A DNA stretch of 64,000 bases from contig OY782041.1 of assembly GCA_963677595.1 (NCBI GenBank), positions 1,152,001 through 1,216,000 of the forward strand. The letters are read 5' to 3'. Of the stretch, positions 12,482 to 49,966 are shown piece after piece (positions within the stretch are counted from its first letter, which is position 1; each line of letters begins with the position of its first letter). This DNA is from Spirochaetia bacterium. GTDB taxonomy: Bacteria > Spirochaetota > Spirochaetia > CAKZLE01. Under the pieces are notes generated by a model, which ran no database searches, was not told where the DNA came from, and was given only the letters and a program-made list of their open reading frames with translations. A program made the position numbers and the translations under genes.

Positions 12482-12516
12482 GATCACAGACTAGGAATCG
12501 TATTCCCTTTGATTGT

Positions 12517-24854: not shown

Positions 24855-25080
24855 AGGTTATTCTACTCGCTCCAAGCTGTAATTGTAAACCATAATACTC
24901 TTCCATACTGTGATGCACACAATTTTCCAAAAATGAGGAACAAGCAAGTACAATTACACACTGATCCTTACTGGTGTGGGGGGAAAGACCGTCAGGTTTT
25001 TCGTCGATCGCAGCATGCTTTTAAATCAAATCGACCTGAATCCTGTTTGTAGTAGATATACGAACACAGGAGGAACCCGC

Positions 25081-26111: not shown

Positions 26112-27779
26112 TCACAGGGAGATGGAAGCCCCCACACTGCACTGGAGGTCCTGCTCCCAGTCAGTATAGACTTCCGTACTCTTCGTGTAGTCTCTCCGGT
26201 TAAGCCAATCCACCTGGTACCATAGACCGATCGCCTCGAGTGCGGGAAGTTCCAGCTCCCCAGCCGTCGAGGCAATGACCGTTTGGCTGATGGTATCACC
26301 GCTCGGAGAAAAGGATACGTCCTCATAATCACCAAATTCTTCAACTACCGTGTTTATGTCCTTGTCCCCATGGAGCATCCCGAAGAGGGAGGCGGAGAAA
26401 GAGCCTATGCCCGGCAGACGATACTCGGTCGAGAGCTGCCCCACGATCGCATCACAGCCGTAGGGATAGCCGAGGAAGTCTATATGGGGTGAGAGGTAGT
26501 CGATCGTCTGTCCGATCGCGAAATGCCTCTGGTAGACCTTGAACTCCACTTTGTCTCGAAGGTACATATAGGGGTCAGTATAGGCGAACTCCAGGTTCAT
26601 CGTCAGGATACCGTTACCGGCACTTCCTGTCTGGGTCCCCCCCAGCATGTAGGCGAAGGAGCCCGGTTGGGTCGAAGCTTCAAGCGGGGCCCGAGCCTGG
26701 TCGATCGCGAATTGTGCGTAGAGGTTAAACCCCGGGGTAACCGCAGCATTCAGTTCAGCATAGGCAAGCGCATTGAACATACTCCGGTTGTTGAGGTTGT
26801 GGAAGATGTAAGCCGGGTTCAGATACTTGATGTCAATGAACGACTGCTCGTACATGACATTCTCCGAGAGGGCGAAGCTGAGCCAGTCCAGAGGAGTGAA
26901 CTCGATCCGGTGAGCCAGGTACATATCCATTCCGTTGAATTCGGATTCATTCATATAGGATCCTGCATCCTCGGGATAATCGAAGAACGAATAGAGGATC
27001 TCATACTTGAAATGGTCATGGTAAGAGACGAACCGCAGGGCATCATAGTAGTCGAGGTTGTCGCTTATCGCGAAGTTCCCGGTCTGCCCGGGACCCCAGG
27101 AGAACATGTCACGGCCAAACTGCAGGTTCCAACCGTCACCACCGGCAGAGATGAACGCCCGGTACGGTGTCTCGAAGTTTATATACTGCAGGTCGAAATA
27201 GTTCGTGCTGAAGGTGTCCTTGTAGAGGTAGGAGGCCGTCAGGTTCTGCAGGGTATCTCCGATCTCGGTGTCTTCCGCAGCGAACAGAGCCTTCGCATAC
27301 TCCATCTCGGAGTATGTGTAGAACCAGTCATGGAGCCCCAGCTCGATATAGGCCTTTATGACGGGAGCCCGGTCCTCATAGCCAAAGACCCAGTCATCCT
27401 CCAGGATGAAGTCAGTGGCGTTCGTATGGTAATAGGCTTCCCCGTAAAGGTCGAGACCAAGCCCGAGCTGGTAGCCGTCCTCTACAGGGAACCGAAGGTC
27501 AGTGTCATAGACCCGTTCCCGTAAATCCTCATACAGATTTTTGTAGGCCCCGTGCATACGCTGTTCCGGGATCAGCTCAAACAGGTTCTGGGCTTCCCCG
27601 TAGGACCAGGGTCGTGATGTGGAGGGCAGGGCCCTGCCTCCCGCGATGAACAGGGAGTCCATATCAGCATAGACACTCTCGTCAAGTGGGATGATACTCT
27701 GCAGATTCTCAGCAAAGAGTGTTCCACTGTACAGGAACAGTACCAGGATCAGCATACAGAATACATAAGACTTTTTCAT
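26112..27779 (-). CDS. Wzi-like beta-barrel paralog 4
   Basis: signal peptide, ENLQ..., LPSTSRPWS, GRDMFSWGPGQTGNF, AHRIE, DPYMYLR; start placed at 27779 behind GGGGAG. Confidence 0.7.
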   Translation of the reverse strand: MKKSYVFCMLILVLFLYSGTLFAENLQSIIPLDESVYADMDSLFIAGGRALPSTSRPWSYGEAQNLFELIPEQRMHGAYKNLYEDLRERVYDTDLRFPVEDGYQLGLGLDLYGEAYYHTNATDFILEDDWVFGYEDRAPVIKAYIELGLHDWFYTYSEMEYAKALFAAEDTEIGDTLQNLTASYLYKDTFSTNYFDLQYINFETPYRAFISAGGDGWNLQFGRDMFSWGPGQTGNFAISDNLDYYDALRFVSYHDHFKYEILYSFFDYPEDAGSYMNESEFNGMDMYLAHRIEFTPLDWLSFALSENVMYEQSFIDIKYLNPAYIFHNLNNRSMFNALAYAELNAAVTPGFNLYAQFAIDQARAPLEASTQPGSFAYMLGGTQTGSAGNGILTMNLEFAYTDPYMYLRDKVEFKVYQRHFAIGQTIDYLSPHIDFLGYPYGCDAIVGQLSTEYRLPGIGSFSASLFGMLHGDKDINTVVEEFGDYEDVSFSPSGDTISQTVIASTAGELELPALEAIGLWYQVDWLNRRDYTKSTEVYTDWEQDLQCSVGASISL

Positions 27780-27906
27780 AATTCTCCCCACCACACACGT
27801 GTAACCCCTCACTCATTTCCTGACCATACTACTGGTTCACACCGTGTGTTTCAACCGTTATCACGGACTACTAGAGAGCTTATTGGATTTTTTCTTACTG
27901 CAAGTT

Positions 27907-32471: not shown

Positions 32472-35435
32472 CTACAGCGGGAGTTTCTTCCCCTCGAGCA
32501 GCACCTCCGGCAGATCCCCACGGTCCTTATCGAGCATATCCTGGCTGCAGAGCAGTACGACAGACGAAAGCTCGTCCATCCTGTTCAGCAGGCGCTTCGC
32601 TGCCAGCATGATACTCTGGCCGTCCGCGGCAAGCAGCTGTTCCCGACGCTGCTCCCTCAGTTCGTCTGTCACGCCGTAGATACGTCTCCGGAACCCGATC
32701 ATGCTCTTCTCCGATGGGGAGAGCGGCCTGACGTCCTTGCCGACCAGGGCGATCACCGAGAGTTCCACGAGTTCATCGTCTACCGCACCCTCCGCGATCT
32801 TCACGAGTCCTGAACGGTAATCAGCGAGCGTCTTCGCAAGCCGCGGGTCACGGTAGGAGGAGAAGGAGGCGATATGCTCCATGATATCGACTGAGGCAGA
32901 GGCACCGTAGGCTCCGCCGACCACCCTGATAGAATCCCAGAACAGGCTCGTGCGCAGGATGTGGGTGAGGACTGACTCATGGACCTGCTGGGCTGTACCG
33001 AACGGGGAGGCAGGGATGACCTGTGCCGTGAAGGAGACATGGGCAGGGATGAGGAAGGTCTCCCCGATGAAGGGGCTCTCGTTCTCAGTTTCACCCTCGG
33101 CAGCAGGGATCGCTTCCTCAGAAGATGTGCCCCCTGGGAAGTCCCTGACCATGTTCCCGATCTGTCCCTTGAACGTTTCTACGTACTCTTCCTCGCAGGT
33201 CAGGTTCAGTGTCATCCTGGCCTTTACGATGATATGGTCCCTGATCTCCCCGAGGCTGTCGGCGATCCTGAGCATAGCCTCATCGTCCTTGAGGTCGATC
33301 CCGGTATTGAAGAACCACTGCCCGAACCCTTTCCAGGCATCTTCCTGGGCAGCAGCAGGGCTCATGGCGGCTGCCGCCCGCAGGGATGCATAATGGGAAC
33401 CGGAGGGGATGATGCTCGTGGCGAAGTCACTGCGCTGTTCGAGCAGGATGTCCCGGATCCTCTTCACGTCCTGCAGTTCCGCAGTCAGGAGGATCCTGCT
33501 GACCAGGGAGAGGGCTTCTTCCACATCCTCGGTAAGCATCTTCACCCGGCAGATCAGGAGGCGTTTCGGCAGGTCCGAGACCGCCTCGAGCCTGCAGGAG
33601 AACCCGCCGGTGATCCCCGCCAGCATCCTGGAGACCTCATCATACGAGTGTCCCGGGATCCCGGTCATATAGATGAGGCGGCTGAAGAGGGGGAGCAGCT
33701 CCATGAGCTCTTCCGGGAGCCCGCCTACATCGAAGACCAGGTCGAGGTAGGAGACACCGTTGGTGAACATCACTTGCCGGAAACAGGGTATGGAGTCGAT
33801 CTCATCCTCCACCAACTCGAGCCTGCTGATCTCAAGCGGCAGGTCGTCCCGTATGAGTCTCGGTATCTTCGCAAGATCCTCAGGGGCCTCCTCTGCCTGC
33901 TGGAACTCCTCGAAGAGCCTCTGTTCCTGTGCGAGGGACTTCAGCTCCTTCTTTGACAGCTTCCCCACCATCGCATCTAGCCGCTTCTTCAACTCCTGCT
34001 CGAAGGCCCTGTTATGGTCCTTAGCCGGAGTCACCGTCACGACGGACCGATGGGGGTTTGCCAGGATGTGATCTGTGATCCACTGTTCCAGGTAGCCGGC
34101 GGGCTCCCTGCAGGATGCGATCAGGTCCTTGAGGCGGTGCATGACCGGCTCGAAGACCAGGGTATCCTCAGGGGCGAGCCCATGGAGCCAGCCCCGGACC
34201 AGCCGGGTCATGACCCGCAGTCCCTCCGGGATGCCTCCCCGGATCTCACGCTGCTGGAACTCGATCCGGTGGATTGCCTGGTCGATGAGTTCTCCCGGGA
34301 TCCCTTCTGCGGAGAGTCTCTCAAGCTCGTTCTGTATCAGTGCCTCGAAGGCTTCGCGCTGCTCCGGGTCGGTTCCCCTGATACCCACGGTGAACACGAT
34401 ATTCCTGAAGTCGGAGTCCATCCCGCTGATCGAAGCGATGTCACTGCCGAGTCCCGACTCGATGATCGCCTTGTACAGTGGTGCCCCGGGGTTGCCGAGA
34501 AGGATCTCCACCAGCAGTTCCATCGTCATGACATCCAGGGGGTCCTGGATGGAACAGACGACCGAGTTGATGGTGATCGTAGATTTCCCTTCGGGACTCT
34601 CCTCCTCGAGCAGCGGGCTGGTATACTCATACCGCACCGGCTTGTCCCAGGGTTTCGGGTCTGGAACGGCATGGTTCAGCTTGATAGCCGTGAACTCCTT
34701 GAGGTACCCCTCCTCGAGGAAGAGGAGCTGCTCCTCTACCGGGATGTCCCCGTAGAGGTAGACCTTCCCGTTCGAGGGGTGGTAGAACTCCGCATGGAAG
34801 CCGGTGAACTGCTCATAGGTCAGGTTGACGATCTCCAGGGGATCCCCTCCCGAGTCATACCCGTAGGGCGTGTCGGGAAAGAGCGAGCGGATCGAGTGTT
34901 CTGCGACGATGGAATCATGGTCGGAGTAGGAACCCTTCATCTCGTTGAAGACGATCCCGTCATATGAGAAGTTCCCCTTCTGGTCCTGGGTCACCCTGAT
35001 GCCCTCCTGCTTGAAGGTCCCCTTGCGCAGCAGGGGGAAGAACACCGCATCGGCATAGACGGAGAGGAGGTTGTAGAAATCCTTCTTCACCGGCGAGGCT
35101 GCCGGATAGAGGGTCTTGTCCGGGTAGGTCATGGCATTGAGGAACGTATTGGCACTCCCCTTCATCAGCTCAAGGAAGGGGTCCTTCGTGGGGTATCGCC
35201 GTGATCCCGCGAGTACTGAGTGCTCTATGATGTGGGGCGTCCCGCTGCTGTTCTTGGGCGGTGTCTTGAAGATGAACCCGAAGACGTTCTCCGGATCATC
35301 ATTGGCTATCTTATAGAGCTCCAGGCCAGTCGCGTCATGGCGGAACAGGTACCCTGTTCCATGCTGTTCAGGCAGTTCCTTCTTTGATACCAGGGTGAAA
35401 CCATGCAGATCGTCACCGGTGTTGAGTCCGGACAT
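32472..35435 (-). CDS. M16C (presequence protease / insulinase family) zinc metallopeptidase
   Basis: HIIEH inverzincin motif, FLNAMTYPDKTLYP, GIVFNEMKG, IRVVGGAYG, SYRDP; start placed at 35435 behind GGAGGAGG. Confidence 0.92.
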   Translation of the reverse strand: MSGLNTGDDLHGFTLVSKKELPEQHGTGYLFRHDATGLELYKIANDDPENVFGFIFKTPPKNSSGTPHIIEHSVLAGSRRYPTKDPFLELMKGSANTFLNAMTYPDKTLYPAASPVKKDFYNLLSVYADAVFFPLLRKGTFKQEGIRVTQDQKGNFSYDGIVFNEMKGSYSDHDSIVAEHSIRSLFPDTPYGYDSGGDPLEIVNLTYEQFTGFHAEFYHPSNGKVYLYGDIPVEEQLLFLEEGYLKEFTAIKLNHAVPDPKPWDKPVRYEYTSPLLEEESPEGKSTITINSVVCSIQDPLDVMTMELLVEILLGNPGAPLYKAIIESGLGSDIASISGMDSDFRNIVFTVGIRGTDPEQREAFEALIQNELERLSAEGIPGELIDQAIHRIEFQQREIRGGIPEGLRVMTRLVRGWLHGLAPEDTLVFEPVMHRLKDLIASCREPAGYLEQWITDHILANPHRSVVTVTPAKDHNRAFEQELKKRLDAMVGKLSKKELKSLAQEQRLFEEFQQAEEAPEDLAKIPRLIRDDLPLEISRLELVEDEIDSIPCFRQVMFTNGVSYLDLVFDVGGLPEELMELLPLFSRLIYMTGIPGHSYDEVSRMLAGITGGFSCRLEAVSDLPKRLLICRVKMLTEDVEEALSLVSRILLTAELQDVKRIRDILLEQRSDFATSIIPSGSHYASLRAAAAMSPAAAQEDAWKGFGQWFFNTGIDLKDDEAMLRIADSLGEIRDHIIVKARMTLNLTCEEEYVETFKGQIGNMVRDFPGGTSSEEAIPAAEGETENESPFIGETFLIPAHVSFTAQVIPASPFGTAQQVHESVLTHILRTSLFWDSIRVVGGAYGASASVDIMEHIASFSSYRDPRLAKTLADYRSGLVKIAEGAVDDELVELSVIALVGKDVRPLSPSEKSMIGFRRRIYGVTDELREQRREQLLAADGQSIMLAAKRLLNRMDELSSVVLLCSQDMLDKDRGDLPEVLLEGKKLPL

Positions 35436-35562
35436 AAAACCTCCTCCCAAGACCAATTCAGCTCAGTATATGCGAGTATACCTGCCTTGTACAGAGGCTG
35501 AAGGGGGAATCGGGTACCGGCGACCTTGCGCAAGGGGAAACGGTTCTGGTAGTATGCAGGAC

Positions 35563-36552
35563 ATGGATAGAGAGACCATGCGGGAACGCAGCCGGATGTA
35601 CGGCAGGATACGACAGTTCTTTGACGACCGGGATTACGTGGAGGTGGATACCCCCATCCTCTCGGAGACCCTGATCCCCGAATCGACCATCTCCTGTTTC
35701 GCGACCAGCTTCACGAGCGAGTTCCATCACTCCAGGGACTACTACCTCATACCGTCTCCCGAGATCCATATGAAGCGACTGATCGGTGAAGGCTACGGGA
35801 ACATCTACCAGATCACGAAATGTTTCAGGAATGCCGAGCAGATCGGCAGCCAGCACAACCCGGAGTTCTCCATGCTCGAGTGGTATACGGTAGGCGAAGA
35901 CTCTCATGACGCGATCACGATCACCGAGGAGCTGATACAGGCGGTCTCCACTTCCAACACACCGGAGCACGTGAGGGCCCCCTTCGAACGCATGACGGTC
36001 GCAGAGGCCTTCTTCAGGCATACCGGGATCGATCTGGATACCGTACAGGCCCCTTCTGCGATGCGGGCGGCCCTGAAACATCTCGGCCTTCAGGAGAGCC
36101 GGGTGCCGGAGAGCTGGGAGGATATGTTCAACCGGATCTTCCTTACCCTGGTCGAGCCGAACCTCCCTGCCGACCACCCGGTCGTCCTCACTGAGTACCC
36201 GATACAGATCCGGTGCCTGGCTAAGCCGGTCAAGGGGACTCCCTACCGGGACCGCTGGGAGCTCTATATCGCGGGGGTGGAGCTTGCCAACTGCTACACG
36301 GAGATGACCGACGGCGAGGCGGTGAGGGCCTGCTTCACCGAGGAGTATGCCCGGCTCTCAACCGAGCGGGCCGTGACGGGGGAGACCATCCCCGATATAG
36401 ACGATGCGTATTATTCCATCTTTGACGGATCCTATCCTGAATGTTCCGGGGTCGCGATGGGACTGGACAGGCTTTTCATGGCATTACACTCCATTAAGAC
36501 TATTCAGGGGGTGATTTTATTTCCATTCTCTGATACAATCGGCAGGCGCTAG
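35563..36552 (+). CDS. epmA: EF-P--(R)-beta-lysine ligase
   Basis: LysRS catalytic domain without anticodon domain: EVDTP, PSPEIHMKRL, FRNAE..HNPEFSMLEWY, GVAMGLDRL; next to efp. Confidence 0.92.
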   Translation: MDRETMRERSRMYGRIRQFFDDRDYVEVDTPILSETLIPESTISCFATSFTSEFHHSRDYYLIPSPEIHMKRLIGEGYGNIYQITKCFRNAEQIGSQHNPEFSMLEWYTVGEDSHDAITITEELIQAVSTSNTPEHVRAPFERMTVAEAFFRHTGIDLDTVQAPSAMRAALKHLGLQESRVPESWEDMFNRIFLTLVEPNLPADHPVVLTEYPIQIRCLAKPVKGTPYRDRWELYIAGVELANCYTEMTDGEAVRACFTEEYARLSTERAVTGETIPDIDDAYYSIFDGSYPECSGVAMGLDRLFMALHSIKTIQGVILFPFSDTIGRR

Positions 36553-36673
36553 GTCTTCTACAGTCAACAAGCAGCAGCGTACACACGAATCTCTCATGGA
36601 CTGCTTTTTTAAGGTCCTGTGCCCCTGCGCGGGTAGAATTCGTTAATATTATAAGGTTTTTAAGAGGTGACTA

Positions 36674-37237
36674 ATGATTAAAGCAGGTCAGATTGAGAAA
36701 GGGATGGCACTCCTCGTGAAGGGACAGCCGTTCATCGTCGTAGAACGTGACTTCGTCAATCCCGGAAAGGGATCCGCATTCGCCAGGGTGAAGATGAAGA
36801 GCCCGACTACCGGACAGGTACTCAGGGAGACGATCAAGACCCAGGATTCAGTCGAGGACATCATGGTGGAGGACAAGGACTGCCAGTATCTCTATAATGA
36901 TGGTGAGTCATACCACTTCATGGATAATGACACCTTCGAGCAGTTCGAGATCCCGATGGCATCGTTCCCCGACTACCAGGTGCTCATGAAGGACGGGGAG
37001 ACCTACCGGGTCACTATGTGGGAGTCGAAACCGCTGAACATCGTCATCCCCTACAAAGTCGTCTATGAGGTAGCCGTAGCTGAGGACGCCATCAAGGGTG
37101 ATACCGTCCAGGGAGCATCCAAGGTCGTCGAGACCGAGACCGGCCTGAAGGTCAAGGTACCGATCTTCATCAAGCAGGGAGAGAAGATCCTCGTGAACAC
37201 CGAGACACGGGAGTATCTTGAACGAGTCAACAACTAG
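36674..37237 (+). CDS. efp: translation elongation factor P
   Basis: NPGKGSAF loop (Lys), KGDT, ETG..VKVPIFI..GE. Confidence 0.98.
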   Translation: MIKAGQIEKGMALLVKGQPFIVVERDFVNPGKGSAFARVKMKSPTTGQVLRETIKTQDSVEDIMVEDKDCQYLYNDGESYHFMDNDTFEQFEIPMASFPDYQVLMKDGETYRVTMWESKPLNIVIPYKVVYEVAVAEDAIKGDTVQGASKVVETETGLKVKVPIFIKQGEKILVNTETREYLERVNN

Positions 37238-37240
37238 CAG

Positions 37241-38467
37241 ATGTTAGATACACTTCTGCACAAGGAGGTCCTCTTCCGTACCCACGGGAAGGACCTCTCT
37301 TTTTCCCTGTCGATGGGGCTCTTCAGCAGTAATGACATCGACACGGGATCGATCCTGCTCATCGACGAACTCATCGCACATGCCGATATTGCCGCCATGG
37401 ACCGTGTCCTTGATGCAGGCTGCGGTGTCGGGACCCTCGGGATCACGCTCAAGGCGCTCTATCCAGGCCTTGAGGTGACCGCCACGGACCGGGATGCCCT
37501 GGCCCTCGCCGTGACAGCCCATAACGCGGAGAAGAACGGCACCCCCATCATGACCGCACCGGGCCTCGATACCCTCATCTGGGACGGGGATCACGACGGA
37601 TTCATCGGTAGTGAAGGTTCCTATGACCTGGTCATGACCAACATCCCGGCCAAGGCCGGGGCACCCGTCCTGAAGCGGTTCCTGCAGAACGGGTTGTTCC
37701 AGCTGACAGATACGGGGATCTTCGCCTTCGTCATCGTGGACACCCTTAACAGTTTTGCAGAACAGATGTGCGCAGAACTCTCATGTGAGATCATCCATAA
37801 GCATGACGGACCCCGCCATACCGTCTTCCTTCTCCGTCGAACGGAAGAGACGGTATGCCCGCTTGATACCGGATTCCCCGGAGTCTATGCCAGGTGTACC
37901 GCTGAGTTTTCCGTCGGGAAGAGTTCCTACACCCTGGATACGGCCTACAGCATACCAGGATTCGATACCGTCCCCTATGAGGCAGCTCTCGGCATGGCTA
38001 TGGCAGAGAAGCATGTCGGGACATCCCTGGCTGTATGGAACCCGGGACAGGGCCATGCAGCGGTCGGCCTCCTGAAGGAGGGCGGGGTCAGGGAGGTCTG
38101 CCTGGCAGGCAGGGACCTGCTCGCCCTGCTCATCTCCCGCCACTCTATAGCACGATATGGGAACGGGGCGACGGTATCTATCATACATACACACAGTATA
38201 ACTGAGTTTTTGTCAATATGGCATATGCCGCATTCACAACCGCAGGGATTGCTCGTCATCTTTCCCGACCCTATCCCCCTCGTCCCTTTCAGGTCTCTGG
38301 TAGAGTCCTCGTATCTTGTTGCTGAAAAGAAGGTTAATGCATCCATCATCCTTGCTTCGAAGAGCTCGGTACTCGCTCCCTTTACCAGGGGTCTGCCCGG
38401 TTTCATCCTGAAAGGATCAAAAAAGAAGAACGGGTTTCGGGCAATATTCCTACAGAATCTTTACTAA
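37241..38467 (+). CDS. class I SAM-dependent methyltransferase (RsmC/MTS-like, with degenerate second domain)
   Basis: GLFSS..IDTGS.LL, VLDAGCGVG.LG, TNIP. Confidence 0.8.
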   Translation: MLDTLLHKEVLFRTHGKDLSFSLSMGLFSSNDIDTGSILLIDELIAHADIAAMDRVLDAGCGVGTLGITLKALYPGLEVTATDRDALALAVTAHNAEKNGTPIMTAPGLDTLIWDGDHDGFIGSEGSYDLVMTNIPAKAGAPVLKRFLQNGLFQLTDTGIFAFVIVDTLNSFAEQMCAELSCEIIHKHDGPRHTVFLLRRTEETVCPLDTGFPGVYARCTAEFSVGKSSYTLDTAYSIPGFDTVPYEAALGMAMAEKHVGTSLAVWNPGQGHAAVGLLKEGGVREVCLAGRDLLALLISRHSIARYGNGATVSIIHTHSITEFLSIWHMPHSQPQGLLVIFPDPIPLVPFRSLVESSYLVAEKKVNASIILASKSSVLAPFTRGLPGFILKGSKKKNGFRAIFLQNLY

Positions 38468-38525
38468 CCGGGCTCTTTGCTTTATCATATTACTAATAAT
38501 TGAAAAGACTTAAGGGAGTTTATCC

Positions 38526-38957
38526 ATGAGAATAACCACCAAGGGGCGATATGCTCTCAGAGCGATCCTCTACCTGATCCACTGCAGCGAAGATAAACCC
38601 GTATCCATCAAGACGCTCTCCGAGCATACTCAGTTATCGCCGGAGTTCCTTGAGCAGATCTTCTTCAGGTTGAGGAAGGCGAATATCATCACCTCGACCC
38701 GGGGACCGGGCGGCGGCTTCCGGTTCGAGAAGGCTGCATCCGAGGTCTCCGTCAATGACATCTTCAATGCAGTCGATGAAGGCTACCATGTAGCACCCTG
38801 CACCGAAGAGGACCCGGAGAAGGCCATCAACTGTGAATATGCCGGGGATTGTGTTGCCTGCGACTTCTGGCAGTATACCAACGACATCTTCATCGAGTAC
38901 TTCTCTACCATCTCCCTGCAGGATGTCCTCGACAAGAACTTCCCCAACCTGAGATAA
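38526..38957 (+). CDS. Rrf2-family transcriptional regulator
   Basis: MRITTKGRYALR, FLEQIF, STRGPGGGF; Cys-rich C-terminal segment. Confidence 0.92.
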   Translation: MRITTKGRYALRAILYLIHCSEDKPVSIKTLSEHTQLSPEFLEQIFFRLRKANIITSTRGPGGGFRFEKAASEVSVNDIFNAVDEGYHVAPCTEEDPEKAINCEYAGDCVACDFWQYTNDIFIEYFSTISLQDVLDKNFPNLR

Positions 38958-38963
38958 CCACCT

Positions 38964-40046
38964 CTACAGGTCAGTATACCAGATCTCCTCGCCATCCATG
39001 CTGCGGAAGAGATATCGATTTCCATCCCTCCTGATCAGGGATGGTTCCTGCAGGGTAACCTTGCCGCCGCCATCCGGCAGGTCGACGGCATACCTTGGCA
39101 TCGCGACCCCGGAGAGCCTCCTCCTCAGTGCTGACTCGATCCTGAAGCCCTCCTCGAGGGAGACCCGAAGATGGGAGGTACCGCTGGCCAGGTCTCCCTG
39201 GAACAGGTAATAGGGGGTGACCCGATGCGATACCAGCAGGTTCATCAGCTCCTCGAGGGTATCGGCATCATCGTTGACTCCCCTGAGGAGCACGGTCTGG
39301 TTATAGAGAAGGATCCCATGGTCCGAGAGTCTCCTCAGGGCAGCCGCACTCTCTGAGTCGAGTTCCCTGGGATGGTTGAACTGAGTCATCAGGAGGACCG
39401 GTGCTCCATCAGCGGTCTTCCCAAGGAGCTTGAGGAGGGAATCAGTCACCCGTGAGGGGAGAACGACCGGGACCCTCGTCCCGATCCGCAGGACCAGATC
39501 CGGTCGTGCCGCACGGAAGATGGCGAACATCCTCTCAAGCTGGCTGTCTTCCATGATCAGGGGATCTCCCCCGCTGATGAGCAGTTCACGGACCTCAGGA
39601 AGCCCCTCGAGCACCCGGGCAGCCTCCTCGATCTCATCGGCAGCCGCGATACCCTGGTGCTTTCCGGTGAACCTTCGCCTGAAACAATGGCGGCAGTACA
39701 TGGCACAGGTATCGGTCGCAAGGAAGACGGCCCTGCTCTGGTAGCGGCGGATGAGTCTCCCTGTCAGCAGATGCTGCTCCTCCGCCAGCGGGTCGGGGGT
39801 CTCGCATTCGAGGGAGATAAACTCCCGTGAAGAGGGGACCGCCTGCAGCCTGATCGGGTCGTCCCTGCCTGCAGCAGGGTCGATCAGCCCGAGGTACCGC
39901 TTGGGGAGGCGGAACCCGAGGGTCTCACGCCCTTCTCCGTTGTCGAACCACTCCTCTTCCTCATCGCTCAGCACCAGGTGTCCCGATATACCGTCACGAT
40001 CTGTCACTGCAGCTTTCAGCTGCTTCTTCCACTCTTCACTCGCCAT
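38964..40046 (-). CDS. epmB: KamA-family radical SAM, lysine 2,3-aminomutase for EF-P modification
   Basis: CAMYCRHCFRR, SGGDPL, NHPRE, NQTVLLRGVND, DLPDGGGK; lies near efp and epmA. Confidence 0.85.
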   Translation of the reverse strand: MASEEWKKQLKAAVTDRDGISGHLVLSDEEEEWFDNGEGRETLGFRLPKRYLGLIDPAAGRDDPIRLQAVPSSREFISLECETPDPLAEEQHLLTGRLIRRYQSRAVFLATDTCAMYCRHCFRRRFTGKHQGIAAADEIEEAARVLEGLPEVRELLISGGDPLIMEDSQLERMFAIFRAARPDLVLRIGTRVPVVLPSRVTDSLLKLLGKTADGAPVLLMTQFNHPRELDSESAAALRRLSDHGILLYNQTVLLRGVNDDADTLEELMNLLVSHRVTPYYLFQGDLASGTSHLRVSLEEGFRIESALRRRLSGVAMPRYAVDLPDGGGKVTLQEPSLIRRDGNRYLFRSMDGEEIWYTDL

Positions 40047-41532: not shown

Positions 41533-41562
41533 TTGGCAATTTTGCCGGTTAAAGGGTATACT
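41533..41562 (+). promoter_or_regulatory. candidate promoter of pelD-pelA
   Basis: TTGGCA-18 nt-TATACT. Confidence 0.5.
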
Positions 41563-41582: not shown

Positions 41583-42869
41583 ATGAAGAAGAAACAGTTC
41601 GGATTGAGCCAGAGCATCATCGACCGCGCACTCAGCTTGTCACGGTTCTCCAACCTCTTCAGTACCTTCGGGGGTATGGTGACGGAGTTCATCCTCCTGT
41701 ATGCGCTCTGCATCATGATCTTCCTGCTGATCCCCGATATACAGTATTCCTTCCTCACCATGAACATCCACCCGCTCCTGTTCGTCTCCTGCTTCATCGG
41801 GATCAGGCACGGGTTCCTGGCAGGACTGCTCTCGGCCCTCCTCTCCTCGATGACCTATTTCTTCTCCTACACGTTCCTGAACCTCGACCCCATCCTCTTC
41901 TTCAGGAGCTACGAGTTCTACAAGTTCCCCCTCATCTTCACGCTCGGGGGCTACCTCTCGGGAAGGATCCATGACTCCAACTCGCGGCAGATGCAGGAGA
42001 TGCGGGATGCCAATGCGGAAGTCCTGCAGGAGTACGATGAGCTGGAAAAGACCTACAAGCGAACGATCCAGATGTACAACGAGCTCAAGGAGCAGATCGT
42101 CGGCGCCGAGTACAGTATCTTCTCCCTCTATGATATCGCATCCTCCCTGCAGACCACCAACCCAGAGAAGGTCTATACCGAGGCGATCGGCCTCCTCTAT
42201 AAGTTCATCAAAGCCCGCGCCCTCTCGATCTACACGATCGAGAACGGGGACTTCATGCGCCTGAAGATCCGGTTCGGCGGCAAGGCACACAAGAACAGCC
42301 GGAAGAAGTATACCGATTCCACCATGTACGACCAGCTCTTCAAGACCAGGAAGGCTGTCAGGTGGGCCGCTGATGCAGGCGAGGATGCACCGATCTTCAG
42401 TGCTCCCATCGTGTCCCAGGAGGAGGTCATCGGCATCATCGATATCGAGGAGATCGAGTTCGAGTACGTGACCGAGTACAGCTTCAGCATCTTCCAGGTC
42501 ATCAGTGAATGGATCGCAAAGGCACTCTCCCAGGCCCTCGACATCGACAAGCAGTTCCAGCTCATGGGCATCGACTACTCGAACATGCTGCAGGTCCCGC
42601 AGTTCGAGCTCCAGCTGAAGGAAGAGCAGGTGAGAAAGGAGAAGTACGGGCTGCCGTTCTGCCAGACCACCTACGACCTCGGCTTCCTCGATTCGGATGA
42701 GATCATCCCGAAGCTGCAGCGGACGCTGCGCAACGTCGACTACCTCTGCTATGACCCGGAGCAGAACCTTGCACGGGTACTCCTGCCGGCTACCGATGAG
42801 GAGAACTACATCATCGTCGAGAAGAGGATCTTCTCTTCACTCGGCTTCAGACTGGATCGGGCCATATGA
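41583..42869 (+). CDS. pelD: PelD-like c-di-GMP receptor (TM helices + coiled coil + GAF + degenerate GGDEF)
   Basis: N-terminal TM bundle (GIRHG..AG), coiled coil, GAF (APIV...VIGIIDIEEIEF), RNVD RxxD site, LLPAT; next to pel genes. Confidence 0.75.
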   Translation: MKKKQFGLSQSIIDRALSLSRFSNLFSTFGGMVTEFILLYALCIMIFLLIPDIQYSFLTMNIHPLLFVSCFIGIRHGFLAGLLSALLSSMTYFFSYTFLNLDPILFFRSYEFYKFPLIFTLGGYLSGRIHDSNSRQMQEMRDANAEVLQEYDELEKTYKRTIQMYNELKEQIVGAEYSIFSLYDIASSLQTTNPEKVYTEAIGLLYKFIKARALSIYTIENGDFMRLKIRFGGKAHKNSRKKYTDSTMYDQLFKTRKAVRWAADAGEDAPIFSAPIVSQEEVIGIIDIEEIEFEYVTEYSFSIFQVISEWIAKALSQALDIDKQFQLMGIDYSNMLQVPQFELQLKEEQVRKEKYGLPFCQTTYDLGFLDSDEIIPKLQRTLRNVDYLCYDPEQNLARVLLPATDEENYIIVEKRIFSSLGFRLDRAI

Positions 42870-44719
42870 AAAGAACCACCCTCAGGTACCTGCTGGTCAT
42901 CATCATAGTCATCATCACGGCGATCATCCTCCAGTACCTGAAGGTGATCAACTTCATACCACGGGCCTTCTGGATAAGCACGATCACCCGCCAGGAGATG
43001 ACCGAGCGGCAGACCCGGTTCATCAGTTCTGACACGGTGCCGGATAAGTATGACGGGGTGTTCATCATCTATGAGGGGTCAAGGACCCATGAACGAAACA
43101 GCTACTACCACCTGGCCCAGACCTTCAGGAACGCCCATATCCACCATGAGGATTATGATGTGCTGACCGATGATATCGGGGAGATGCTGGAGGATATCCC
43201 TTTGGGGAGCCACATCATCCTGGCGAATGAGATCTCAGAGCAGCTATCAGATGAGGAGATAGCCCTGCTTGAGCAGCTGGTATATGAAGGTGCTCAACTG
43301 AGCATCGTCGTCCGTTCCTTCGATGCCAGGCTCGGGAAGGTCGCGGGGTTCTCCGGCATAACCAGGTACATCGAGACCACAGGGATCAACTTCGAGGAAC
43401 CCATCTTCCCAGGACTCGATGAGACAGTGACCAACCCGAAAGCCTTCCACTCCTCCTCCCTCGAGCTGTCCCTGTCAGAAGGGACTGAGGTCCTGCTCAC
43501 TTCGGATGATGAGACCCCGCTGGCATGGAAACACCCCTACGGCAGCGGTTCCGTGTTCTATGCGAACACGACCATCTTCCAGGACAAGAAGAACCGGGGG
43601 CTGCTGCTGCAGTACCTCCTTGATAATGCAGACTACGGCTTGGCCACGGTATTCAATAAGAAGATCATGAATATCGACGACTTCCCGGCCCCGCTGCCGG
43701 CGGGGAGGGATGCCGATATCTACGCAGAGTACCATCGTGACATCATCAAGTTCTACAAGGACATCTGGTGGCCCGATATGAGGGACCTCGCGGCAAAGTA
43801 TGACCTGGCTTATACCGGGCTGATCATCGGGACCTATAACGATGATACGACACCGCCGTTCAAGGAACTGACTGAAGGGGACCTGGAGAATATCGAGTTC
43901 TTTGCCAGGAAGCTTGATGAGATCGACGGCGAACTGGGGATCCACGGATACAACCACAACTCGCTCATAACGGAAGGCCTCATAGACTTCGAGGATTACA
44001 GTTATAACCCCTGGGCTTCCAAAGAGGACATGGCCGAGGCACTCACCTACCTCAGGTCCGAGATCGAGGCCCTCGTCGGGGAGATAGAATTCAGGACCTA
44101 TGTTCCCCCATCCAACCTGGCGAACAGGCTGTCGGAGGAGGCTGTCCTGGCTGCCTTCCCTGAACTCAAGGTCTTCGGGGGACTCTATACCGGTTCGCAG
44201 AACGAGAAGGAGACCCTGATCCAGGAATTCGGGCCGAACCCCTATTTTGATGGTGTATATGACTTCCCGCGGTTCAGTTCCGGCTACCTGAATGAGAATG
44301 AGATGTGGTCTATCTACAGCGCGATCGCTGAGCTCGGCGTATTCAACCACTTCATCCACCCTGACGACCTGCTTGACCCAGAACGGTCTTTGAACAATTC
44401 ATGGGAGGTCCTATTCAAGAGTCTCAGCGAGACCTTCGCGGAATTGACCGATCGCTTCCCATACCTCGAATCCGTGACTGATTATGAGGCATACCTCGAC
44501 TACCTGAATTATGAGAAGATGGACATCTTCAGCAGAAAAGAGGGTTCCACCATCGATATATGGGTCGAGGATGCACCACTCCCAACCTATGCCTACCTGA
44601 GAGTCGATGCCCCGATCGTCGATACGGACGGGATCACGCTCCATTCGCTTGACCGGGACGGTCTCTACCTCATCGAGATCCGGAAACCGGAATCCTCTGT
44701 GACACTCTTCTCCAAATAG
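42866..44719 (+). CDS. pelA: DUF2194 / PelA-type polysaccharide deacetylase
   Basis: N-terminal TM, NIDDFPAP (CE4-like DD motif), ELGIHGYNH, YVPPSN, PRFSSG, HFIHPDD. Confidence 0.75.
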   Translation: MKRTTLRYLLVIIIVIITAIILQYLKVINFIPRAFWISTITRQEMTERQTRFISSDTVPDKYDGVFIIYEGSRTHERNSYYHLAQTFRNAHIHHEDYDVLTDDIGEMLEDIPLGSHIILANEISEQLSDEEIALLEQLVYEGAQLSIVVRSFDARLGKVAGFSGITRYIETTGINFEEPIFPGLDETVTNPKAFHSSSLELSLSEGTEVLLTSDDETPLAWKHPYGSGSVFYANTTIFQDKKNRGLLLQYLLDNADYGLATVFNKKIMNIDDFPAPLPAGRDADIYAEYHRDIIKFYKDIWWPDMRDLAAKYDLAYTGLIIGTYNDDTTPPFKELTEGDLENIEFFARKLDEIDGELGIHGYNHNSLITEGLIDFEDYSYNPWASKEDMAEALTYLRSEIEALVGEIEFRTYVPPSNLANRLSEEAVLAAFPELKVFGGLYTGSQNEKETLIQEFGPNPYFDGVYDFPRFSSGYLNENEMWSIYSAIAELGVFNHFIHPDDLLDPERSLNNSWEVLFKSLSETFAELTDRFPYLESVTDYEAYLDYLNYEKMDIFSRKEGSTIDIWVEDAPLPTYAYLRVDAPIVDTDGITLHSLDRDGLYLIEIRKPESSVTLFSK

Positions 44720-44735
44720 GGACGGATGGTGCGCA

Positions 44736-47348
44736 TCAGGTATTGCGTTCATCCTCCTTCTTGAGATAGTTCGATATCATATCCTGCAGGGAGACATGTT
44801 CATCATGTTCTTCGTCCTCTTCCTCTTCCTCTGCATCCAGCACGATTCCGGTGAAGGTCCTGATGAACTGGTCATCCGACTCCTCCGCTTCGGGCTCCTC
44901 ACTGATGAGTTCGGAGGGTATATCTCTAAGCTCATCCCCGTATTCAGCCAGGAGGGACCCGAGCATTGGCATATCTTCCTCCTCAGCCTCGAGGAGCTCG
45001 AGCGGCGTAGGTGCGGTCTCTTCCTGCTCAGTCCCCTCAGGAGCGGGTTCAGCAGCGGACTCCTTGCCCTTGAGGATGTCTTCCAGGACATCATGCAGTT
45101 CGGAGACGGTCTCCTCCCTTGAGACAGGCTCCTCGGTGAGCAGGTGATCGAGGATGTCGCCGATCTGGTCCGGTTCCTCCTCGGCAGGCTCTGTCACCTC
45201 AGGAGCGGGTTCAGCAGCGGCCTCCTTGCCCTTGAGGATGTCTTCCAGGACATCATGCAGTTCGGAGACGGTCTCCTCCCTTGAGACAGGCTCCTCGGTG
45301 AGCAGGTGGTCGAGGATCTCCCCGATCTGGTCCGGTTCCTCTTCGGCAGGCTCTTTCACCTCAGGAGCGGGTTCAGCAGGGGTCTCCTTGCCCTTGAGGA
45401 TCTCTTCCAGGACATCATGCAGTTCGGAGACGTTCTCCTCCCTTGAGACAGACTCCTCGGCGAGCAGGTGGTCGAGGATCTCTCTGAGATGGTCCGGCTT
45501 CTCTTCGGCGGGCTCCTCGAGGATCTCGGTGAGCGTCTCCTTCAGGTGCTCTTCAGTCTCCTGGCGCTTCCTCTTCCTGACCCGGTGCCGTTTCTCCTCC
45601 TTCTCAAGGATCTCCAGCGGTGTGACGATCTCCTCGTCCGCAGGGACCGGCTCCTTCATCTCAGGCTCTGCAGGAGCTTCCGTCTCCGTCTCAGCTTCAG
45701 GGGCTTCCTTGATCAGCCCTGCATCAGCTCCCCCGAAGAGGTTAGCCAGCAGCTGTGCGTCCTTCTCCGATTCCAGCTGGGTACGGTCCTGTACCCCGAA
45801 CAGCTCCTCTTCGGCGTCGGGCAGATTCTCACCACGCTCGATCGCGTCCTTCCGCTTCTTCTCAAGCAGGAGCCGGTCCAGGGCATCCTGGTCCGTCATC
45901 CGTTTGTCGATCCACTCCTCCAGCTTCTCGAAGGTCTTGCTCTTGGTCTTGGTATGCACCGGCTGGGTCCGGTAGGTGTGGCTGATCACATCACGATACC
46001 CCATGATCATCAGGTAGAGCCCGAAGAGCATGGTCACGAAACTTGCCAGGAAGAACCCGAACCCGTAGAAGTTCTCCCCCCAGGAGAGGGAGAGGAGCGT
46101 GAATATGACGTTCGTGACCAGGAAGACCACCATGAGCAGGAGGGTCTTGTTACGTTCACCGATGTAGAGGAGGACCTGCATGAAGATGAGGATGAAGGAG
46201 TTGCAGAAGGCTCCCAGGGCATAGATCATGAAGATCTGCCGGGAGCTCTCCGGAACGTTGAGCAGCGGGAAGAGCGAGCGGGAAAGGACGATGATGATGA
46301 TCGTGATGAACAGCTGGATCTCGAAGGTCTGCAGGATGTTCTTGTTCAGGGAGCTCCACATCCGCTCAGCGAAGACCTTCAGCTCAGAGAAGGGGCCATT
46401 CCTCAGGACCGCCAGGAAGAACTCCCGGCACTTCACCGAGAAGTCGGTCTCGATGAGCACCATGAAGAGCATGGTCGAGGGAAGGATCGAAAGATAGGAG
46501 TAGAAGGTGGCGATGTCATAGAAGGGGGCATACCGGAAGGTCCCGAAGAGCTCGATACTGATCGGGGAGAACCACATGATGATGTTATCGATCCAGATTG
46601 CCATGGTATAGATGACGCCGATCGGCCAGAGACTCGGCTCGCTGTGGAAGTAGCGGATGAAATGGAGGACCTTCCCGTTATCCTCCTTCATCTCTGAGAG
46701 CAGCGCGATCAGGAGGAACATCGTGAAGAACACGATCCCCCCGAGGTAGGCCAGCAGGAGGTTCGTCGACCCGCTGAACTCGGAGAACTGCATCGGGTTG
46801 TTCGCGAGGATGAGGATGAGGATGAAGGTGACGAAGGTCCCGAGGATGTTGGACATCGTGACCAGCTTGAAGTTCTTCAGGGTCGACTGGTAGACGATGA
46901 GCATCCAGAGGACTGAGAGTACCACCATCAGGGCGACCGAGAGGTAGAGGAACTCTATCGGGATCTCACTGTTCCGGTAGAACCAGATCCCGAAGGTAAG
47001 CGCGATCAGCGAGACCAGGGCAGAGGAACCCCAGAAGGAAGGTTTTATGTACTCATACTCCTCCTTGTAGATCCTGTCCGCAAGGAACCGGGTGATGACC
47101 ATCTGGAACGGTGCGGTCAGGATCTGCGAGAAGAGGGTGCTGTAGATGATCGCCGAGATGAGCAGTTCCCGTTCGACGAAGGGGAGGTTCCACCTCCTGG
47201 AGAAGGCGAGGATCAGGTTGATGGTGACGATACTGATGATCCAGGGGCCTGCCGAGACGATGGCTGTATGGAACCAGGCATGTACCCGTGTCGAGTAGGC
47301 ATCATCACTCTTGATCATCTTCCTCAGGGAGAAGCCTATACCTGCCAT
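44736..47348 (-). CDS. pelG: PelG exopolysaccharide transporter with long acidic C-terminal extension
   Basis: MAGIGFSLRK, SAGPW, TRFLADRIY, WIDNIIMW, YDIATF, ETDF in the first ~460 aa; ~400-aa E/P-rich tail. Confidence 0.88.
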   Translation of the reverse strand: MAGIGFSLRKMIKSDDAYSTRVHAWFHTAIVSAGPWIISIVTINLILAFSRRWNLPFVERELLISAIIYSTLFSQILTAPFQMVITRFLADRIYKEEYEYIKPSFWGSSALVSLIALTFGIWFYRNSEIPIEFLYLSVALMVVLSVLWMLIVYQSTLKNFKLVTMSNILGTFVTFILILILANNPMQFSEFSGSTNLLLAYLGGIVFFTMFLLIALLSEMKEDNGKVLHFIRYFHSEPSLWPIGVIYTMAIWIDNIIMWFSPISIELFGTFRYAPFYDIATFYSYLSILPSTMLFMVLIETDFSVKCREFFLAVLRNGPFSELKVFAERMWSSLNKNILQTFEIQLFITIIIIVLSRSLFPLLNVPESSRQIFMIYALGAFCNSFILIFMQVLLYIGERNKTLLLMVVFLVTNVIFTLLSLSWGENFYGFGFFLASFVTMLFGLYLMIMGYRDVISHTYRTQPVHTKTKSKTFEKLEEWIDKRMTDQDALDRLLLEKKRKDAIERGENLPDAEEELFGVQDRTQLESEKDAQLLANLFGGADAGLIKEAPEAETETEAPAEPEMKEPVPADEEIVTPLEILEKEEKRHRVRKRKRQETEEHLKETLTEILEEPAEEKPDHLREILDHLLAEESVSREENVSELHDVLEEILKGKETPAEPAPEVKEPAEEEPDQIGEILDHLLTEEPVSREETVSELHDVLEDILKGKEAAAEPAPEVTEPAEEEPDQIGDILDHLLTEEPVSREETVSELHDVLEDILKGKESAAEPAPEGTEQEETAPTPLELLEAEEEDMPMLGSLLAEYGDELRDIPSELISEEPEAEESDDQFIRTFTGIVLDAEEEEEDEEHDEHVSLQDMISNYLKKEDERNT
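45037..45516 (-). repeat. three tandem 162-bp (54-aa) repeats in the pelG tail
   Basis: TCAGGAGCGGGTTCAGCAG at 45037, 45199 and 45361 (162-bp period); unit EPAEEEPDQIGEILDHLLTEEPVSREETVSELHDVLEDILKGKEAAAEPAPEVT. Confidence 0.95.
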
Positions 47349-47349
47349 G

Positions 47350-48921
47350 TCAGTTCAGCTCCTCTACATGCAGGCCGATCTGCACATCCTTGCCCTGGGA
47401 ACTCTGGAGGGAGATCCGGTAGATCTCATCATAGGCCTCGAAGACTGCCTGCCTGCTGTAGATGACCCTGGTGCGTTCGAGGCCGTTGAGTCCGTACTGC
47501 TTCCCCATCTCCCGGTCCTCATAGAGCTGGATGATCGCATCTGCCGTCTCTCTCGGGGAGACCGGCTTGGTGATGATGCCCCCGTGGCCGAACCCGTCAC
47601 CGACCCCCTCGACCAGGTCCCGGCAGGAGCCGACATCGGAGGAGACCACCGGGGTCGCACAGGCATACGACTCGAGGATGACCAGCGGCTGGGCCTCGGA
47701 GATCGAGGTCAGGACGATGACGTCAAGGATCGGCATGTACTCCTTGATGTTCACCCGCCCCGTGAAGATGATCTGCTCCTCGAGTCCCAGTTCCTTGACC
47801 AGGTCCCGGCACTCCCTCGCATACTCCTCCTCCTCATCATCCGGCCCGATGACATAGAGCAGCGTATCCTGGTACTTGGCATAGACGTAACTGAAAGCCT
47901 TGATCAGCGTCTTCACATCCTTGATGGGGACCACCCGGAGGATCGCCCCGATGTTATAGGTCTCATGCGGGTCCTTATGTCTCGGGAACCCCTCGATATC
48001 GACACCGTTGGGGATGACATAGGCCCGTTCCGGGTCGACACCGAGTTCCTGCTGTATCCCGCTGTTGTGGGCGAAGAGGGCTATCGCTATATCGCAGGTC
48101 TGGTAGGCCCCCCGGGAGAGAAAATAGAAGTAATCGATCCAGAGCTTCTTGTAGGGACCCTTTACCCAGTCGACCTTGAGTATTTCCTCCTCACGTTCCC
48201 GCGCATAGATACCGTGCTCGGTGAGGACGAACGGTTTGCCGTAGGTGAACTTCCCGATCAGCCCGATCAGCCCGGCATACCCCGTGGAGATCGCATGGTA
48301 AACATCGGCATCAGGCAGCGGCTGCTGCATGATGGAGATCAGGGTAGCCAACATGGAACGGAAGGTCCAGAAGAAGAGGTTGAATCCCTCATCCGGGTAA
48401 TTGGCCTCATAGAGCTCGACCAGGCTGTCAAAGAAGTGCCTGCTCATGAGGTAGTCGATCGTATTGCCGATCTTCGCCGGATCGCAGACCAGACGGGTGA
48501 TCAGCTCCCAGTCGATGGTGGAATCGAAGAAGGTGAACTTGCGCAGCTGCTCCTTCTCCTCCCGGGACAGGCGCATCCCGCGCTTCATCGTCTGGTCGAG
48601 GTTCAGGAAATCATACATGTAGATCGTCCTGAACTCGATGACATTCTCGGGGAAGGTATACTTCAGCTCCTTGACCTGGTCTTCGGAAGCCATGATGGTG
48701 AGTATCTTGAACCGGTAGTCCTTCATGATGTTCAGCAGCTGGTTCACCCAGGAGGAGACCCCCCCTGCGATATAGGGGTAGGCGCCTTCCAGGATCAGAC
48801 AGATAGTCTTCCCGTCCGGCTCGAGGGACGCACCATGGCGGCCCCAGTCCCGGGGACGCCGGCTGTCGAGTTCACCCCTAAAGAGTTTGACCTGCTGCTT
48901 CTTCGCTCGTCTCAGTTTCAT
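47350..48921 (-). CDS. pelF: PelF GT4 glycosyltransferase
   Basis: ICLILEGAYPY..GGVSSW, HAISTGYAG, TEHGIYARER, RVVPIKD, SISEAQPLVILE. Confidence 0.92.
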   Translation of the reverse strand: MKLRRAKKQQVKLFRGELDSRRPRDWGRHGASLEPDGKTICLILEGAYPYIAGGVSSWVNQLLNIMKDYRFKILTIMASEDQVKELKYTFPENVIEFRTIYMYDFLNLDQTMKRGMRLSREEKEQLRKFTFFDSTIDWELITRLVCDPAKIGNTIDYLMSRHFFDSLVELYEANYPDEGFNLFFWTFRSMLATLISIMQQPLPDADVYHAISTGYAGLIGLIGKFTYGKPFVLTEHGIYAREREEEILKVDWVKGPYKKLWIDYFYFLSRGAYQTCDIAIALFAHNSGIQQELGVDPERAYVIPNGVDIEGFPRHKDPHETYNIGAILRVVPIKDVKTLIKAFSYVYAKYQDTLLYVIGPDDEEEEYARECRDLVKELGLEEQIIFTGRVNIKEYMPILDVIVLTSISEAQPLVILESYACATPVVSSDVGSCRDLVEGVGDGFGHGGIITKPVSPRETADAIIQLYEDREMGKQYGLNGLERTRVIYSRQAVFEAYDEIYRISLQSSQGKDVQIGLHVEELN

Positions 48922-49966
48922 CCTGTATCCAAAATGCCAGGCGTTCAGACTGCTCCTTCGTGAGTTTGCTGCCCATCCTGCTTATGATCCTCGCCAGGTT
49001 CTTGACCTGGGGAAGATCACCCTGCTTGTAGAAACAGCTCATCAGCGTGAACTGTATGCCAACGTCCTCTGGATTGTTCTTCGCGACCTCCTTGAGGAGC
49101 TCACAGGTCTCATCCGCCCTTCCCTGCTCCATATAACTGTAGGCCAGGTGCTTCACGATCGAGAGATCGGAACCGAAGGTCTGCACCTGCAGCTCAAGGA
49201 TTTCGATGACCTTCTTTCGGTAGATCGGGATGATGTCATCATCGAGCAGCCCGGAATCGACATAGTTCTCATAGAGGGTGATCAGGTTCTCGAGGTTCTC
49301 CTTCGTCAGGTCCTCGGCAGCCTTGTCCCTGCCGTCCCTGATAGCCTGCTCGAACCGATTCTCCAGGTAGTTCAGGGTCGTCGCCGTATAATGGACGACC
49401 TCCGGGTCCTCATCCTCCAGCCCCTGCTTGAGTGTCCTGCAGTTCTGCACGACATCGGCGGAGAGCAGGTCTACGATCACTCCCTTCTTGTTGATCGCAT
49501 CGGAATAGGTGAAGACCCCGGACATATCCATGAGCTTCGCCACCTGTGCGAAATCGACGGTCTCCTTCTGCTCGTACTTCATCTCGGCCTCTTCGGCATA
49601 TGCGTGCTTGAACTCCTGCTGGACGAGCTTCATGCCGACGAAATAGAGGACGATATAAGAGATGCTGTAGATCAGCCCCCCCATTCCGGGGATGACGAGG
49701 AAGAGGACGGGGGAGATGTTCCGCGTCTGCGGGGAGGAGCGCTTGCGGATGACCAGGATCCCGCCGAAGAGGGCGGCATGGACCAGGAGCAGCACGGCGA
49801 TGCTTGAGTCGACCTGCTGCACGAAGGTGAAGTAGTAGTAGAAGATGATGAGCATGAGGTCGACGAGCCCGATGCATACGATGATCAGGGGATAGATCCA
49901 GGGGTTGCTCGTATAGGTGAAGTAGAGTTTCTGTATCTCATCCCGGTTCATCGCAGTGTCGGCCAT
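48878..49966 (-). CDS. pelE: PelE-like membrane protein with HEAT/TPR-like region
   Basis: N-terminal TMs (PGMGG), LKQGLEDEDPEVVHY.A, YVDSGLL, TPR-like C-terminus; directly upstream of pelF. Confidence 0.7.
   Translation of the reverse strand: MADTAMNRDEIQKLYFTYTSNPWIYPLIIVCIGLVDLMLIIFYYYFTFVQQVDSSIAVLLLVHAALFGGILVIRKRSSPQTRNISPVLFLVIPGMGGLIYSISYIVLYFVGMKLVQQEFKHAYAEEAEMKYEQKETVDFAQVAKLMDMSGVFTYSDAINKKGVIVDLLSADVVQNCRTLKQGLEDEDPEVVHYTATTLNYLENRFEQAIRDGRDKAAEDLTKENLENLITLYENYVDSGLLDDDIIPIYRKKVIEILELQVQTFGSDLSIVKHLAYSYMEQGRADETCELLKEVAKNNPEDVGIQFTLMSCFYKQGDLPQVKNLARIISRMGSKLTKEQSERLAFWIQDETETSEEAAGQTL

Follow-up and report, generated by a model that had tools for sequence, protein, structure and literature searches.

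Two described Pel exopolysaccharide systems are the closest to the locus reported here. In Bacillus cereus ATCC 10987 the genes form pelDEA_DAFG, which includes a transmembrane (TM)-anchored DUF2194 deacetylase and lacks PelB and PelC (accessible parts of PMC7112168 and PMC13254593; PDB 9zau). In Pseudomonas aeruginosa they form pelABCDEFG, with a PelBC export complex (PMC12141448, in part; PDB 9h80). In the portions of the literature available to us, the polymers of diderm Pel, poly-N-acetylglucosamine (PNAG) and cellulose systems all exit through a TPR/barrel pore. Here we analyze a pel locus at 41583..49966 of a 64,000-nucleotide stretch (the window) from a Spirochaetia bacterium (contig OY782041.1). 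It has the same five genes as B. cereus and the same deacetylase type with the same catalytic motifs. With P. aeruginosa it shares the PelD fold, PelF, PelG and a diderm host. Unlike B. cereus, its host has an outer membrane, no hydrolase or galE gene is linked to it, and its PelG carries a long acidic tail; pelD-pelA are followed by inverted pelE-F-G, giving two convergent units. Unlike P. aeruginosa, no PelB, PelC or bifunctional PelA was found anywhere in its genome. The features, in window positions, are as follows.

41533..41562, plus strand: candidate sigma-70 promoter of pelD-pelA, TTGGCA-18-TATACT, from a promoter scan and conservation in the host family
41583-42869, plus strand: pelD, 428 aa, from an open reading frame (ORF) call
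42866-44719, plus strand: pelA (PelA_DA, DUF2194, CE26-type de-N-acetylase), 617 aa
44720-44735, no strand: convergent junction, 16 bp between the pelA and pelG stop codons
44736-47348, minus strand: pelG, 870 aa
47350-48921, minus strand: pelF (GT4 glycosyltransferase), 523 aa
48878-49966, minus strand: pelE-like membrane/TPR gene, 362 aa
50003..50031, minus strand: candidate extended -10 promoter of pelE-F-G, TTGCTC-17-TATAGT with TG, below the scan threshold

The original prediction, made from the DNA letters, had named these genes and called their architecture monoderm-type, and family, structure and motif evidence bears this out. Searches with hidden Markov models (HMMs) matched DUF2194, PelG and PelF, the exception being PelD against the PelD_GGDEF model. 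PelA matched DUF2194 (E 3.5e-101) and the PelA_DA structure 9zau (E 1e-88). It has a single N-terminal TM anchor, and its motif residues D271, D272, H360, H364, R469, H498, D500 and D501 are all intact, the roles of the catalytic residues being taken from the accessible part of PMC13254593. PelF matched DUF3492 (E 2e-76) and the NCBIfam model NF038011 (376.8 bits, cut-off 100). PelG matched PF16933 over positions 1-452 of the 452 in the model (E 4.5e-117), and its residues 1-459 form the inner-membrane exporter part. The remaining tail of about 390 aa (about 44739-45911), which the original prediction had overlooked, is acidic (33% D+E) and contains repeats. Among seven orthologues this tail varies from 89 to 390 aa, being acidic in the host family and basic in two sister-order genomes. 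PelE has sub-threshold TPR matches, and we assigned it because it has three predicted TM segments and because, in Bacillus-type loci, its profile matches the syntenic gene, which lies between pelD and pelA.

The product of the first gene did not match Pfam PelD_GGDEF in a search in which no positive control matched either, and the domain scan of the window proteins gave only a sub-threshold GAF_3 match. A sequence search of the PDB returned nothing useful for it, a second look being filled by GAF domains. Its AlphaFold model, built from a 35-row alignment (pLDDT 81.8, pTM 0.52), retrieved P. aeruginosa PelD at all of ranks 1-8 in Foldseek (best E 4.7e-9), and by this predicted fold the protein is PelD. 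Its architecture comprises N-terminal TM helices, a coiled coil, a GAF domain and a short, degenerate GGDEF-like domain. The candidate I-site for cyclic di-GMP (c-di-GMP) consists of R383-x-x-D386 and R415; R383 and D386 are invariant in all 35 aligned homologues and R415 is kept in at least 90%. The 32-residue spacing of the two arginines equals that of R363 and R395 in B. cereus, and D386 corresponds to B. cereus D366, these three being the I-site residues given in PMC7112168 (available part). All five frames and every motif checked are intact, and orthologues within the genus are 62-84% identical. The locus is an intact Gram-positive-type Pel synthase set with PelD, PelE, PelF, PelG and a TM-anchored, deacetylase-only PelA.

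The host genome is a single contig of 4,325,376 bases, 95.4% complete and 6.28% contaminated. It encodes BamA with POTRA domains adjoining TamB, and several barrels; close homologues come from Spirochaetales and Spirochaetia. The host had been taken for a diderm spirochaete, and both its taxonomy and these genes agree. Judged from its genes, this host with an outer membrane departs from the monoderm setting in which this form of Pel is defined. Flagellin, LpxC and MreB were not found in the genome, and the positive control matched in each search. One transpeptidase penicillin-binding protein (PBP) and one SEDS protein were present, again with matching controls. From these genes we infer a non-motile, probably coccoid cell. 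As a side observation, two to three divergent MreB paralogues were seen in most members of the flagellin-negative, one-PBP clade other than the host (L215:3269-6164, L216:3338-6664 and L217:2718-4861 in genomes G001, G003 and G056). Most of these genes stand in tandem and score below the TIGR00904 cut-off. The syntenic place in the host contains no such gene. Several MreB proteins without a second PBP resemble the situation in Spiroplasma.

No PelB, PelC or hydrolase-fused PelA had been noticed in the window, and none is among the 50 window proteins scanned. Genome searches with PF24604 and PF16963 had no matching control, and the absence was therefore re-tested with our own profiles; PF24604 does match the PelB control protein at E 8.5e-76. 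Profiles of PelA, PelB and PelC, built from four to five proteobacterial proteins each (four for PelC), were searched against the 14,911 six-frame ORFs of the genome. Held-out Ralstonia proteins scored E 2.5e-261 for PelB, 1.6e-57 for PelC and 0 for bifunctional PelA, and nothing comparable to any of the three was found in the host genome. The best PelC-profile match was a vWA lipoprotein at E 0.037. The expectation that pelB and pelC are missing genome-wide, and not from the window only, thus stands, and none of the components that define the Pseudomonas type (PelB with TPR and beta-barrel, PelC lipoprotein, bifunctional PelA) is present. Likewise, PgaA_barrel was not found in the host genome (the E. 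coli control matched), and no barrel gene flanks pel in nine full loci of the window's type. A stand-alone GH114 lipoprotein gene lies about 0.9 Mb from pel. We considered it as a dispersed sixth gene and rejected it as not core; it occurs in three of seven genomes with the window's type of locus, all of them from the host genus, as well as in 14 further genomes.

Related genomes place this result in context, since PelG was found in 18 of 61 of them and these fall into two types. Seven have type 1, the window's convergent layout, and eleven have type 2, a colinear pelD-E-F-G. In nine of the eleven type-2 loci an adjacent protein of about 1250 aa is visible (L029-L039, e.g. L032:5369-9025), which consists of an N-terminal domain, TPR repeats and a PgaA-like barrel. 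The barrel domain resembles those of PgaA and BcsC by its features (0.94), and its predicted fold (pLDDT 82.9) has a TM-score of 0.70 to PgaA 4y25. A profile of this barrel matched in 11 of 11 type-2 genomes (two held out), in none of the seven type-1 genomes, the host included, and as one fragment in the 43 others. Type 2 shares with the window its class, Spirochaetia, and PelD, a small PelE, PelF and PelG, and a DUF2194 PelA adjoins in 3 of 11 loci. It differs in being a separate lineage that always has the TPR and PgaA-like barrel protein and whose PelD has a longer GGDEF domain; the window locus has no such protein and lies outside the type-2 PelF/PelG clade. Type-2 loci often adjoin an HDOD gene and a gene for a lipoprotein, and no PelC-sized gene was seen in them. 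All seven type-1 genomes are flagellin-negative with one PBP, whereas all eleven type-2 genomes are flagellin-positive with at least three; these counts contrast two lineages of related genomes and are not a statistical test. Three more type-1 loci, outside the flagellin count, were found in G061 (where a contig end cuts inside pelA), G064 and G066, bringing the convergent junction to 10 genomes in three orders.

The type-1 locus appears to have descended vertically, as PelF and RpoB trees show the same branching. In a quick RpoB tree of 41 of the 61 genomes, the families that we label f1 (that of the host), f19 and f20 form one clade with support 100. This clade (G000, G001-G005, G023, G024 and G056) stands apart from f12, likely Sphaerochaetaceae. 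In a larger sample of 301 genomes of the class, each at least 85% complete, strong type-1 PelD matches are confined to f1 (5 of 6, including the host) and f20 (4 of 4), 9 of 10 in all; 27 further matches are weak (E 1e-13 to 1e-28). The locus has been lost in G004 and in most of f19. Full-length PelA_DA without catalytic residues is found in the sister order, in G024 and G056 and, by motif search, apparently in G064 and G066:

L023:11023-12879, L026:10157-12025, L174:6001-7872 and L175:12405-14252: sister-order PelA_DA lacking the catalytic His/Asp

According to a preprint (PMC12236494, accessible part), the spiral shape was lost a single time among the spirochaete species in culture. A second loss in the f1-f19-f20 clade is possible; the separation from Sphaerochaetaceae, on which an independent loss of flagella would depend, is seen with one marker and long branches.

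The original prediction held that a Firmicutes-type Pel machine had been acquired and rearranged. Type 1 does nest inside the monoderm-type clade, but a Firmicute donor is not established because the sister group (support 91) mixes Clostridia with barrel-carrying diderms; it comprises Tepidibacter, Peptoclostridium, Halanaerobiales, Ca. Mcinerneyibacterium and Sphaerochaetaceae. Joining types 1 and 2 was rejected on PelF+PelG (35 rows, approximately unbiased (AU) test, p 0.0007) and not rejected on PelF alone (36 rows, AU p 0.116). A common origin with Sphaerochaetaceae Pel was also rejected (AU p 0.012), and recent transfer was discarded in view of GC and GC3 values that match the genome. The nearest five-gene relatives are ordered D-A-E-F-G rather than D-E-A-F-G, so the convergent layout is best explained by a single inversion of E-F-G within such an operon. 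The rearrangement is ancient and clade-wide rather than recent, and it is probably neutral.

The opposed orientation of pelD and the DUF2194 gene on the plus strand and pelE-F-G on the minus strand, with a 16-bp gap, agrees with the coordinates when re-derived. Two convergent units replace the single colinear D-E-A-F-G operon in all 10 genomes, with junctions of -4 to 144 bp, and no intrinsic terminator was called at the 16-bp junction. Each unit had been credited with its own promoter. A plain promoter scan of the sequence performed at chance level (5 sites against 4.9 expected) and reported the plus-strand site only, the pelE site falling below threshold, but phylogenetic footprinting backed both sites in 5 of 5 host-family genomes, and not clearly in four sister-order genomes. 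The pelD promoter keeps the same spacing and near-identical hexamers in all five, and the pelE promoter is kept even in the two of them with another neighboring gene. As the convergent geometry requires two promoters, separate transcription is likely. The further idea that the receptor and deacetylase are regulated apart from the synthase core found no support. Both promoters look like plain sigma-70 sites, no riboswitch or other Rfam element matched in the window, no shared operator was evident by eye, and there was no sign of differential regulation. PelD itself belongs to the PelDEFG core (PMC13254593, accessible part).

The neighborhood of pel in the window consists of housekeeping genes. 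A cluster that adjoins pel and is kept in relatives (35395-40046) comprises efp, epmA-like and epmB-like genes and the genes of a methyltransferase and an Rrf2 regulator. A transposase of the PD-(D/E)XK nuclease family lies at 24976-26022 within a lower-GC stretch.

The nearest sequences, from Tepidibacter, Peptoclostridium, Ca. Mcinerneyibacterium, Cetobacterium and Fusobacterium, have the same D-A and E-F-G blocks. They differ in having one orientation, and the operons of their diderm members include a GH114 gene and a gene for a predicted barrel; the loci of the window's clade have neither. In Fusobacterium and Cetobacterium a protein of about 310 aa with a barrel-type C-terminus directly follows pelG (OMP_b-brl, E 1.4e-6, in one of the two). 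In Ca. Mcinerneyibacterium and locus L042 a putative barrel of about 400 aa, recognized by sequence pattern only, lies upstream of the pel genes. A linked pore thus seems common in diderms with this Pel type, and no homologue of the fusobacterial or Mcinerneyibacterium barrels was found in the host genome. The roughly 400-aa predicted barrels at L042:1-1281 and L074:3863-5062 are 27% identical and precede GH114-pelD-A-E-F-G. In fusobacterial PelG (L121:13418-16687, L120:13409-16433) there is an additional hydrophobic segment together with Gly/Tyr/Asn-rich repeats, and the gene that follows is predicted to encode an outer-membrane barrel. Six Sphaerochaetaceae loci are D-E-F-G without DUF2194 and have four upstream genes, which we read as the CotH-type accessory set of PMC7112168 section 6. 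In Paenibacillus-type loci (L055, L057 and others), PelG is about 1035 aa long and likely a fusion, since related loci have both PelG and a separate gene of about 575 aa. One type-1-like PelD (P0129) labelled Bacteroidetes and one Bacillus-type locus (L116) labelled Chitinophagales are probably mis-binned records. Monoderm-type pel in diderms has been tabulated before, as F. nucleatum pelF/pelG in the PMC7112194 supplement and likewise for Selenomonas; our literature searches and the supplement files searched yielded no pel locus of a spirochaete. The parts of the window system are textbook. What is new is their clade-wide, exporter-less and inverted form in wall-reduced spirochaetes, and its contrast with the barrel-bearing Pel of flagellated spirochaetes.

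Since no dedicated exit pore was found in the genome, we favor, with evenly balanced confidence, the reading that the Pel polymer of this diderm spirochaete, predicted to be c-di-GMP-controlled, stays between the membranes. Diguanylate cyclases, whose genes are present (34 GGDEF matches in the genome), would supply c-di-GMP, and PelD would bind it at R383, D386 and R415 as B. cereus PelD does. PelF would then polymerize UDP-GalNAc, its presumed substrate, provided by a GalE-like epimerase whose gene is present and unlinked. By analogy with B. cereus, PelG would carry the growing polymer through the inner membrane and hand it to the TM-anchored PelA_DA. The predicted product is a cationic, partly deacetylated N-acetylgalactosamine polymer, which may collect in the periplasm, forming a layer associated with the wall, and reach the outside only through leakage, vesicles or lysis. 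Vertical retention of the locus in nine of ten genomes of the two main orders supports this reading, and the decay of the sister-order deacetylase fits a polymer that needs no charge for export.

Several points weigh against retention. The absence of a homologue does not show the absence of an exit route in a genome with barrels, four Wzi-like proteins and one OPX protein, and our beta-barrel heuristic scored known barrels poorly, leaving the barrel inventory poorly calibrated. All carriers belong to one clade, which makes the association with wall reduction a single event rather than a correlation. In the first sample 13 genomes lack flagellin and have no more than one PBP, and only 7 of them carry pel; in the larger sample it is present in 0 of 27 genomes of f12 and 0 of 3 of f19. 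On these counts Pel as a universal peptidoglycan substitute was rejected. Moreover, control by c-di-GMP is typical of a biofilm matrix. Finally, B. cereus requires PelA_DA catalysis to make Pel (PMC13254593, accessible part), so the dead sister-order enzyme could instead mean decay.

It is conceivable, and we hold this somewhat below an even chance, that the locus makes ordinary surface or biofilm Pel that leaves by an unlinked, non-homologous route, such as a barrel, the lone OPX, a Wzi-like barrel or outer-membrane vesicles. Other diderms have swapped PelB for unrelated barrels, so replacement is easy, several host barrels are without family assignment, and the PelD regulatory site is intact in a genome with many c-di-GMP genes. 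The host has four Wzi-like genes in total, all at a distance of 14-32 kb from pel (window 9375-14433 and 26112-27812). However, this family is Spirochaetota-wide, with up to eight matches per genome; it occurs in 39 of 61 relatives whether or not they carry pel, was not found in the type-1 genome G056 and is not beside pel in the sister order. Having no linkage to pel outside the host genus, Wzi-like barrels were rejected as a dedicated exit, and Wzi is described as anchoring capsule rather than exporting it (PMC9601211, available part). The single OPX (Poly_export/SLBB) gene has no polysaccharide genes beside it, and, as noted above, pel has no flanking barrel gene.

An improbable alternative is a leaky or incomplete envelope, free of lipopolysaccharide (LPS) and with a loose outer sheath, in which the machine works as in Gram-positives without a pore. 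The missing LpxC and MreB and the single PBP and SEDS protein would suit it, as would the non-rigid wall of Sphaerochaeta (PMC3372971, accessible part), but the host retains BamA, TamB and many barrels. Most spirochaetes lack LPS (PMC12236494, in part). Even so, these have a closed outer membrane. It is very improbable that the pel genes are in decay or that their product is no more than a short oligosaccharide: the dead deacetylases, the pelE split into two ORFs in G003 (L028:10055-11140, a frameshift or assembly error), the variable PelG tails and the losses in f19 and G004 point that way, but the intact window frames and motifs, the identity to same-genus orthologues and the conserved promoters do not.

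Retention between the membranes may be part of a wider scenario, which we regard as rather unlikely as a whole, in which an uncultured clade that had shed its flagella and most of the machinery for peptidoglycan took up a Gram-positive-type Pel synthase and made of a biofilm polymer a c-di-GMP-tuned periplasmic wall layer without export. In this comparison a diderm clade has kept a Pel synthase across three orders without a recognizable pore, whereas its flagellated relatives never split Pel from one. Either Pel serves inside the envelope, a new role that bears on the shape of wall-reduced spirochaetes, or an export route of an unknown kind exists. The natural variants, with live or dead deacetylase, with or without a barrel and with split transcription, probe the need for deacetylation and operon order in synthesis. 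If a periplasmic wall layer is indeed formed, a synthase-dependent exopolysaccharide would be serving as envelope material with no export step.

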